A DNA stretch of 5,001 nucleotides from a virus. A program made the position numbers and the translations under genes. Shown here in pieces: positions 1 to 201 of the stretch. The stretch spans positions 1 through 5,001 of the IMG/VR virus record IMGVR_UViG_3300045988_011848. The stretch is one strand, 5' to 3'. Under the pieces are notes generated by a model that saw only the letters and a program-made list of their open reading frames with translations, was not told the origin of the DNA and ran no database searches. The first letter of the stretch is position 1. Each line of letters begins with the position of its first letter.

Positions 1-95
1 CTTTTTTTTCAGATATCTCAACGATTTGCGCACGGGTACACACCGGAACCAGTTACTTACTTGATGTAACTGGTTCCGGTGACACCCCGATGCAC
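1..95. repeat. Wrap-around terminal redundancy of a circular genome; identical to 4907..5001, giving a 4906-nt unit
   Basis: I compared the two ends base by base. cttttttttcagatatctcaacgatttgcgcacgggtacacaccggaaccagttacttacttgatgtaactggttccggtgacaccccgatgcac occurs at 1..95 and again at 4907..5001, an offset of 4906. The window simply ends at 5001, as expected for a circular contig or a window cut across the junction. Confidence 0.95.
34..88 (+). promoter_or_regulatory. Long stem-loop in the main intergenic region; candidate (+)-strand replication origin / ssDNA structural element
   Basis: A perfect 16-bp stem pairs caccggaaccagttac (41..56) with gtaactggttccggtg (66..81). The 9-nt loop is ttacttgat (57..65). 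The stem extends outward by gggt (34..37) pairing with accc (84..87) across a small internal loop. The loop contains ACTTGAT (59..65), matching the phiX174 origin core CAACTTG/ATA. A second copy at 4947..4987 is the wrap-around duplicate. Confidence 0.55.
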
Positions 96-201
96 GTGCG
101 GGTACCCAACGCACTGCTCGAATGTTTGCTTTCTCTTTGACTTGTGGTATATGCTTTGTCCTACGGTGATAAAGCTTTTTGAGTTTTGGTTTTAGAGCCG
201 T

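Follow-up and report, generated by a model that had tools for sequence, protein, structure and literature searches.

Gokushoviruses are among the most abundant single-stranded DNA (ssDNA) phages in gut, marine and soil viromes, and the genome analysed here raises the question of where the rolling-circle replication of such a phage begins. The stretch under study, positions 1 to 5,001 of the IMG/VR record IMGVR_UViG_3300045988_011848 (hereafter the window, 5001 nucleotides, nt), consists of a complete circular gokushovirus genome of 4906 nt followed by a 95-nt terminal redundancy (4907-5001 identical to 1-95). Its main non-coding region, which runs from the stop codon of VP3 (4836) to the start of VP1 (272), contains a hairpin at 41-81 that had been proposed, on the window alone, to be a stem-loop origin nicked by VP4, the replication initiator of the phage. 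We conclude, with a probability of about three in four, that this hairpin and a TGACACC box at 80-86 together form the viral-strand (double-strand) rolling-circle origin, which VP4 would nick between G63 and A64. This central idea of the original prediction is now supported by comparative conservation, by covariation of the stem and by an alignment of VP4 with protein A of phiX174, all three being evidence drawn from sequence.

The hairpin has the form first described for it. Its 5' arm (CACCGGAACCAGTTAC, 41-56, + strand) pairs with its 3' arm (GTAACTGGTTCCGGTG, 66-81, + strand) at 16 of 16 positions, enclosing a 9-nt loop (TTACTTGAT, 57-65) in which ACTTGAT occupies positions 59-65 and, with it, the predicted nick site TACTTG/AT (the slash marks the cut, placed at G63/A64 by analogy with phiX174). 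The outer 4-bp extension is likewise found by ssDNA folding, where C33-G36 (CGGG) pairs with C86-G89 (CCCG) across a 4x4 internal loop, and up to three more outer pairs are predicted between 30-32 and 91-93. Folding of 20-115 as ssDNA gave -28.8 kcal/mol (z = -6.5), a value that none of 200 shuffles equalled. When 60-nt windows were slid along both strands and folded as DNA, the hairpin was the strongest structure in the genome, as had been claimed, at -22.2 kcal/mol against -19.2 kcal/mol for the next, at 4266-4325. The element is non-coding: neither strand has an open reading frame (ORF) of at least 40 amino acids that reaches into 1-271. The same hairpin at 4947-4987 (+) is a repetition through the terminal redundancy, not a second copy.

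The loop heptamer is identical to positions 4301-4307 of phiX174, across the viral-strand synthesis origin that the RefSeq record annotates at 4306, within CCCCCAACTTG/ATATTAATAACACTATAGACCACCG. The phiX174 origin reads CAACTTG/ATATTAATAACACTATAGACCAC (CAACTTG/ATATT...TATAGACCAC), so that ACTTG/AT is common to both phages. ACTTGAT occurs once per genome in the window, the original prediction having noticed no other copy; the second match (4965-4971) belongs to the terminal redundancy. About 0.94 occurrences are expected by chance over both strands of the window, and two matches were reached in 55 of 200 shuffles; the heptamer alone was therefore dropped as evidence, since only its placement in the loop and the comparative data give it meaning.

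The enzyme predicted to act on this site is encoded at 3104-4021 (+) and was recognised by Pfam and by profile alignment. VP4 carries motif 1 (FLTLTY, residues 72-77), an HUH motif (H128-Y-H130, nt 3485-3493) and a two-tyrosine motif, A-A-Y179-V-A-R-Y183-V-T-K-K, of which Y179-VAR-Y183 corresponds to nt 3638-3652. Its Pfam matches are PF23343 (REP_ORF2-G2P, E = 2e-25, 89 bits) and, weakly, PF05840 (Phage_GPA, 21 bits, below the curated cutoff of 31.4), and it belongs to none of Rep_trans, Rep_2, Viral_Rep or Gemini_AL1. When a profile of seven diverse VP4s was aligned using hhalign with residues 190-357 of phiX174 protein A, the match had a probability of 92.7% (E = 4e-7) and took in the protein A motifs FDTLTL, LHFHAVHF, WPYGYS and FYVAKYVNKK, the last being the two-tyrosine active site; the HUH motif and YVARYVTKK of VP4 fall opposite LHFHAVHF and YVAKYVNKK. 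Judged by these alignments, VP4 is a homologue of the catalytic core of protein A, with HUH and Y-x-x-x-Y motifs in both initiators, and the economical reading would be that a two-tyrosine enzyme cuts the same heptamer in the two phages. A second phiX-like origin inside VP4 was also considered and rejected: the only near match, TACTTCAT at 3410-3417, is at chance level and has the cut base altered.

The comparison with relatives, in which conservation of the loop and compensatory changes in the stem were at issue, came out strongly positive. The close relatives compared were six genomes from GenBank and 58 contigs from IMG/VR with VP4 94-100% identical, and all of those in which this region is assembled keep the hairpin. 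In one stem pair both partners change, from GGAACCAG and CTGGTTCC to GGAAACAG and CTGTTTCC, and one contig (L062; contigs and loci are designated by L numbers) has a second double change, from CCGG/CCGG to CCAG/CTGG. The first loop base may be T, G, A or C, while TACTTGAT and the GTGACACC that follows it do not vary. Close relatives alone discriminate little, because the whole non-coding region is 87-100% conserved within the clade. Five of them (L015, L031, L043, L056 and L061) appear to lack the element, an absence we set aside: their contigs are shorter than the genome of about 4.9 kb, and L015 and L043 end in the non-coding region beside the hairpin.

More distant genomes are therefore the informative ones, and 22 of these were found in IMG/VR through VP4 only, at 43-51% identity. 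In each of the 21 that are apparently complete, a coding-strand hairpin displays (A/T)CTTGAT in its loop and a TGAC-type box (mostly TGACAC) comes after it, the stems being unrelated in sequence, as in CTCAGCACAGTTAC-CTTACTTGAT-GTAACTGTGCTGAG-TGACAC, GTCGTACCAGTT-CTACTTGATGT-AACTGGTACGAC-TGACAC and CCTGGAACAAGT-GTTCTACTTGATAT-ACTTGTTCCAGG-TGACAC. The same association emerged when IMG/VR was scanned by motif only (TACTTGAT N12-22 TGACAC), with longer loci serving as a control for chance: among the matches listed, 52 of 78 in loci of up to 7 kb lie within a perfect hairpin of at least 7 bp, against only 4 of 44 in the longer ones. Perfect stems across the family range from 7 bp to 16-17 bp and are longest in the window's own clade, so that the 16-bp stem of the original prediction, although present, lies at the long end of the family rather than being typical of it, and the outer extension is confined to the clade, an equivalent of the outer helix not being seen by eye in the printed flanks of distant relatives.

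Isolated gokushoviruses belonging to three genera show the design as well. Chp2 has a 14-bp stem between VP3 and ORF8 (CTAGCGTATAACAG-TCTACTTGAT-CTGTTATACGCTAG) with an ACTTGAT-type loop; SpV4 has a 10-bp stem (TGGGGCATAT-ATTACTTGTTATA-ATATGCCCCA) followed by TTGACGAC; and phiMH2K has an 11-bp stem (AGTTCGGCTAC-GGACCCTACTTGTTGTAA-GTAGCCGAACT), located after VP5, whose loop contains CTACTTGTTGTAA. The hairpins of SpV4 and phiMH2K both carry TACTTGTT. That hosts as unlike as Chlamydia, Spiroplasma and Bdellovibrio share this design points to a partner encoded by the phage rather than by the host.

A covariance model of the element was then applied to loci ascertained by protein alone, through a VP4 alignment headed by Chp2. 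It matched 67 of 71 IMG/VR loci at E <=0.025, and three more (L210, L223 and L224) have variant hairpins, leaving L254 as the only one of the 71 without a hairpin. In bacterial genome assemblies the model matched 58 of 78 VP4-bearing loci. Taking both sources together, the element is present in 125 of 149 loci with VP4 identities of 28-51%, with stems that differ and compensate and a near-invariant (T/C)ACTTGAT loop. As expected, the model found no match in phiX174. Four cultured-isolate genomes have the element, those of Phascolarctobacterium faecium DSM 14760 (L283, 6700-6754), Intestinirhabdus alba BIT-B35 (L286, 6575-6627), Oscillibacter sp. PC13 (L332, 9830-9885) and Helicobacter labetoulli (L350, 7881-7935), and these bacteria might be hosts or serve as experimental systems. 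In the first two, the only ones in which VP1-VP3 neighbours were mapped, the element stands beside VP1-VP3 genes within large chromosomal scaffolds, in a prophage-like setting, and the P. faecium locus has the gene order of the window (VP1-VP2-VP4-VP5-VP3-element). Two contigs that seem to have two origins (L266 and L260) were discounted as concatemeric or chimeric assemblies, since they exceed one genome and repeat a 76-94% identical variant of it at about 4.45-4.52 kb. Five other contigs (L149, L221, L232, L246 and L264) also seem to hold two origins.

Selection on pairing is visible in two alignments. The first, A1, is an ungapped alignment of 30 diverse elements picked for a hairpin of at least 7 bp; here 14 of the 16 pairs vary in both partners. 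Its covariation score, 0.425, was reached in 0 of 500 shuffles (0.155) and falls to about 0.1 when the partners are slid by 1-3 columns. The second, A3, is a covariance-model alignment of the VP4-ascertained set, whose members were not selected for structure but were fitted to the structure of the model. Changes on both sides affect 13 of its 16 pairs, the score is 0.303 against 0.109 in shuffles (again 0 of 500), and sliding the partners reduces it to about 0.05.

The loop and the 3' side are conserved in another manner. Over 74 distinct elements from VP4-ascertained genomes, the loop columns T-A-C-T-T-G-A-T hold 1.4-2.0 bits each. On the 3' arm, the columns G/T/A/A/C/T/G are 85-99% conserved, compared with 59-84% for their 5' partners; as the loop-proximal GTAACTG is thus kept beyond what pairing needs, this side appears to be recognised by its sequence in addition to its structure. 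The stem is immediately followed by a near-invariant TGACA (TGAC is invariant in A1, and T-G-A-C-A are each 96% conserved in A3), and CC comes next in 85-88% of elements. In the window this is the TGACACC box at 80-86 (+), which overlaps the last 2 nt of the stem. Unnoticed in the original prediction, the TGACAC(C) box emerges from these comparisons as a conserved flanking determinant and is a candidate binding ("key") sequence for VP4. From the predicted cut to the T of the first TGAC/TGGTC match, the distance is 16 nt in 40 of 63 distinct CTTG elements and 17 nt in 9. Gokushoviruses would thus have a putative tripartite layout, made up of a conserved 5' box (TACTTGAT), a 16-nt (40 elements) or 17-nt (9) spacer and a near-invariant 3' box, TGACAC(C), of which 3 nt are shared with phiX174.

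This pattern also bears on whether the hairpin is instead a complementary-strand (minus) origin, which in the injected single strand would recruit host primase, RNA polymerase or a PriA-type primosome, in the way that the phiX174 F-G intergenic hairpin, the G4 origin hairpins and plasmid single-strand origins act as complementary-strand initiation signals. The element is indeed a strong intergenic hairpin on the presumed viral strand (the packaged strand being assumed), every microvirus needs a signal of this kind while none is annotated in the window, and conserved, compensating hairpins of other small microviruses have tentatively been read in this way (PMC9865509). The loop, however, is the cut sequence of phiX174 protein A and no known priming signal, and both loop and box are near-constant across Chlamydia, Spiroplasma, Bdellovibrio, gut Firmicutes and Proteobacteria, whereas host-recognised signals diverge. 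The one-sided conservation of 3' arm and 3' box fits a sequence-specific protein better than a structure-specific primosome, and other conserved hairpins of the same region (153-175 and 202-242) could serve for priming. We consider a minus origin unlikely as the explanation of the element; the alternative offered in the original prediction survives as a possible additional role, next to that of a plus origin, and is the weaker explanation in that it accounts neither for the identity of the loop nor for its constancy across hosts.

The two hairpins just named are found shortly before the start of VP1, both with a T run behind them, and the 202-242 stem (AAGGCGGTTAGGTC paired with GACCTAGCCGCCTT) is compensated in relatives, for example as GGCGATCGGTTC with GAACTGGTCGCC; each might act as a terminator, as a leader structure or as a complementary-strand origin.

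The flanks of the hairpin had been described as an iteron-like direct repeat with the pattern GCACG..GGTAC. Both copies are there, GCACGGGTAC at 30-39 (+) and GCACGtgcgGGTAC at 92-105 (+), and only 0.03 chance occurrences of the pattern are expected, a figure for a pattern that was defined after inspection of the data. What does not hold is conservation. In seven close variants that keep the hairpin (L028, L032, L037, L046, L055, L057 and L059) the left copy is replaced by CGGGGAGGTCCGG-type flanks, and in the right copy only GGGTAC is conserved within the clade, the GCACG half being variable, with positions 93-94 conserved in just 50-60% of 31 close relatives. Nothing comparable to the repeat was found in distant relatives. 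Iterons bound by the initiator were therefore rejected, the single 3' box alone being conserved, and the left copy is probably no functional iteron; the repeat is probably clade-specific sequence that partly forms the outer helix. In many distant gokushoviruses (e.g. L070, L066, L128, L155, L201, L108 and L120) the TGACAC box is also the 5' arm of a second small downstream hairpin, such as GGTGAC-ACCCA-GTCACC or TGACAC-CAAA-GTGTCA, a structure that the window lacks.

The position of the element is as constant as its form. It is intergenic in 59 of 59 gene-mapped genomes, never lying inside VP1-VP5, and in 58 of 59 it is the first feature downstream of VP3, at a distance of 13-650 nt, a place it keeps even where the VP4-VP5 module is located elsewhere. 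The gene that comes next (n = 58) is VP4 in 47 genomes (mostly about 150-250 nt away, at most about 660) and VP1 in 10, the arrangement seen in the window; which of them it is follows from gene order. The element is on the gene-sense strand in 117 of 125 loci.

A stable stem-loop so regularly placed downstream of VP3 would also suit an element acting in RNA, namely an intrinsic terminator or an mRNA-stabilising 3' hairpin of a transcript ending after VP3. The hairpin has no T tract, its stem being followed by ACACCCCGAT, and the terminator scan does not call it. That scan does find an intrinsic terminator between VP3 and the hairpin, at 4887-4915 (+; GATCGCCCGCTTGCGGCGATC followed by T8), upstream of and separate from the hairpin, so that termination after VP3 is already provided for. 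An 8-nt loop held invariant, together with a 3' box, across 28-50% protein divergence is, moreover, not a property of terminators, and in the eight loci where the element is inverted a transcript would carry the complementary loop. The missing T tract, the separate upstream terminator and the inverted copies exclude the terminator reading, and a known RNA family was rejected too, because an Rfam search of the element returned no family and only sub-threshold noise (best mir-582, E = 0.23, far below the gathering score). We regard a role in RNA as very improbable indeed.

The element might alternatively be a DNA site that is bound and not nicked, serving for instance in packaging or procapsid docking, as an operator for transcription, or in recombination or integration. 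A dimeric protein could recognise the combination of inverted repeat and conserved box, flips of orientation are tolerated, and some gokushoviruses integrate via non-coding motifs (PMC7062461). Conservation in the loop and on one side only does not resemble the symmetry of an operator, however, and the covariation of the arms shows that it is pairing, not arm sequence, that is selected. Against an integration site, the element is present in the lytic cultured phages Chp2 and SpV4. The published dif motif of enterogokushoviruses, moreover, is a different, 28-bp sequence (PMC7062461). A packaging role would not be distinct from an origin, phiX174 packaging being coupled to protein A at the origin. 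These points make a non-nicking site improbable, and we return to the reading of the element as a viral-strand origin.

As such an origin, the element could work as follows. On the supercoiled replicative form the inverted repeat would extrude as a cruciform, or melt with the help of VP4, leaving TACTTGAT single-stranded in the loop. VP4 would dock on the conserved 3' side (GTAACTG ... TGACAC) and cut between G63 and A64, upon which Y179 or Y183 would become joined to the 5' phosphate of A64 and the 3'-OH of G63 would be extended by host polymerase and helicase. After one round the regenerated site would again be displayed in the hairpin loop of the displaced strand, where the second tyrosine may cut it, so that the first linkage is resolved and a circular single strand is released for packaging.

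Several observations weigh against this interpretation. A lone ACTTGAT in a 4.9-kb genome is at chance level, so that the case rests on comparison, and both alignments used for covariation lean toward structure, A1 through selection for hairpins and A3 through fitting to the model. For every gokushovirus, the position of the cut, the covalent adduct and origin activity itself are predictions. The putative specificity is not absolute: position +1 is T rather than A in SpV4 and phiMH2K (ACTTG/TT), some genomes have the loop variants TCTTGAT or CACTTGAT, and TGACAC is replaced by GTGATAGC as the 3' box of Chp2 and by CACAGAAAC in phiMH2K. The architecture, too, departs from that of the only characterised relative, since phiX174 protein A needs no hairpin and has its origin within gene A. 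The GAC found at +18 to +20 in both phiX174 and the gokushovirus element is a match of 3 nt that could be coincidence, and alone it would not carry homology with the phiX174 origin.

The most awkward observation concerns orientation. In 8 of 125 loci the whole element, in its usual intergenic position, is inverted with respect to all five genes, for which we have no explanation. Three of these are in IMG/VR (L215, 1381-1425; L219, 4379-4425; L272, 842-887) and five in bacterial assemblies (L312, 2093-2149; L328, 4788-4843; L330, 3059-3116; L311, 1398-1455; L337, 2482-2538), all of them on the - strand. The inverted elements keep the hairpin, a TACTTGAT-type loop and a TGACAC/TGACAG box, and since at least two clades and several samples are represented, a single assembly error is not the cause. 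On a duplex, a rolling-circle origin works in either orientation; with an inverted element, however, a phage would package the antisense strand, and we know of no such packaging in Microviridae. The inverted copies thus represent a genuine novelty, or else they warn that the model is incomplete.

A bolder version of the origin reading would take the element as the universal and hitherto unannotated viral-strand origin of Gokushovirinae, homologous over the whole 30 nt to the phiX174 origin, and the inverted genomes (about 6%, 8/125, in at least two unrelated clades) as cases of antisense packaging. We hold this version to be doubtful; if it were true, gokushoviruses with inverted elements would be negative-sense ssDNA phages.

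The remainder of the window has a conventional gokushovirus layout, with all genes on the + strand. VP1 (272-1897; Pfam Phage_F, E = 6e-192) is followed by VP2 (1971-2594), a 40-amino-acid arginine-rich ORF (2697-2819), VP4, VP5 (4018-4308; Phage_ORF5) and VP3 (4390-4836; Chlamy_scaf). In GenBank the closest records (among them PV067910, PV067909, KT264829, MG945560 and KX513869) are gokushoviruses of the human gut, with identities of 86-90%. The ORF at 2697-2819, rich in arginine and lysine (MSRRRHKLSRKASKRIFRKG...), resembles a J/ORF8-type DNA-binding protein and is unannotated in all six GenBank relatives, three of which give the label "DNA binding protein" to the homologue of VP5 (Pfam Phage_ORF5). 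A 76-amino-acid ORF at 2895-3125, without a family match, overlaps the start of VP4. The second-strongest fold of the genome (4279-4324; GCGGCCGCGCCTG with CAGACGCGGCCGC, -19.2 kcal/mol) spans the stop codon of VP5, and a terminator-like hairpin with a T run comes after it, at 4346-4368. Several independent IMG/VR contigs of the same clade (L011, L017, L021, L024, L026, L036 and L039) have the heptamer at position 59, as the window does, apparently through a common start base, and others (L015, L043, L016, L023 and L050) end at or beside the hairpin, which suggests trouble in assembly or sequencing there.

A full-text literature search found no description of a gokushovirus origin or of this hairpin; the genome papers of Chp2, phiMH2K, SpV4 and Chp1 were outside this search, so that an earlier mention is possible. 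No such description was found in the main comparative studies, Roux 2012 (PMC3394797), Labonte & Suttle 2013 (PMC3871881), Quaiser 2015 (PMC4412055), Kirchberger & Ochman 2020 (PMC7062461), Kirchberger 2022 (PMC9239249) and Zucker 2022 (PMC9753089), or in the report on PhiCA82 (PMC3135560). HUH origins with the nick site in a hairpin loop are, as a kind, already known; what is new is that the cut sequence and spacing of phiX174 are found inside a covarying hairpin that is intergenic and subfamily-wide.

The element is short and recognisable, a hairpin with TACTTGAT in its loop and TGACAC 16-17 nt past the cut, which makes the origin question testable with one oligonucleotide and VP4; Chp2, SpV4, phiMH2K and the enterogokushoviruses of E. 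coli are cultivable systems for such work, and the inverted copies raise a testable question about the packaged strand. Annotators could take the element as a natural zero coordinate and use it to check thousands of metagenomic genomes for completeness. HUH enzymes with known sequence targets are, in addition, useful as covalent DNA-protein tags. In evolutionary terms, the findings suggest how phiX-type origins may be related to the hairpin origins of plasmids and circular Rep-encoding single-stranded (CRESS) DNA viruses, with cut sequence and spacing in common and the spacer either AT-rich or folded.

How, then, does the element compare with origins that are already understood? Within Microviridae, a published likeness is that of the reekeekee- and roodoodoo-microviruses, which have intergenic hairpins with a conserved loop and compensatory stem substitutions, tentatively tied to minus-strand initiation (PMC9865509). 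They resemble the gokushovirus element in design, belong to different clades and were not related by their authors to the cut sequence of protein A (PMC9865509).

Among plasmids and eukaryotic viruses, origins of the pT181/pMV158 type and those of CRESS-DNA viruses (circoviruses and geminiviruses) share its overall plan: a conserved nick sequence (in gokushoviruses a predicted one) in the loop of an inverted repeat, a variable stem, an adjacent sequence for binding by Rep (in gokushoviruses a candidate), and an intergenic position. Their nick sequences (for example TAGTATT/AC and TAATATT/AC) are unrelated to the gokushovirus loop, and their initiators belong to the Rep_trans, Rep_2, Viral_Rep and Gemini_AL1 families. 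These Reps bind iterons, whereas the gokushovirus element has a single 3' box and no conserved iterons were found in it. The rolling-circle scheme of phiX174 and pT181, and the hairpin-loop origin as a design principle, have been reviewed (PMC5714925).

The double-strand origins of pC194/pUB110-type plasmids (Rep_1) offer another comparison. The replicons of these plasmids are served by an HUH enzyme that is related to phiX174 protein A and yet belongs to another Rep family (PF01446), and catalysis by these Reps uses one tyrosine and a glutamate rather than two tyrosines. The pC194 cut is CTTG/ATA. In the pC194 origin, TTCTTTCTTATCTTGATAATAAGGGTAAC, the nick region carries CTTGATA (PMC7072734), and short inverted repeats, CTTAT and ATAAG, would place the site in a small loop. 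Compared with the gokushovirus element, the stem is much shorter and the TGACAC box is lacking.

The closest counterpart remains phiX174 itself, whose origin is part of gene A and forms no hairpin, the best enclosing stem being 1 bp; the spacer in phiX174 is AT-rich. The gokushovirus element is intergenic, displays its predicted nick site in a hairpin loop and has as its 16-17-nt spacer the GC-containing 3' arm of the hairpin. The classical gene A origin of phiX174 spans about 30 bp and ends at +23, as does the conserved block in gokushoviruses. From this comparison we infer that the element may be an origin of the phiX type, with cut box, spacer and 3' box, in which the spacer has become the arm of a hairpin instead of an AT-rich stretch.

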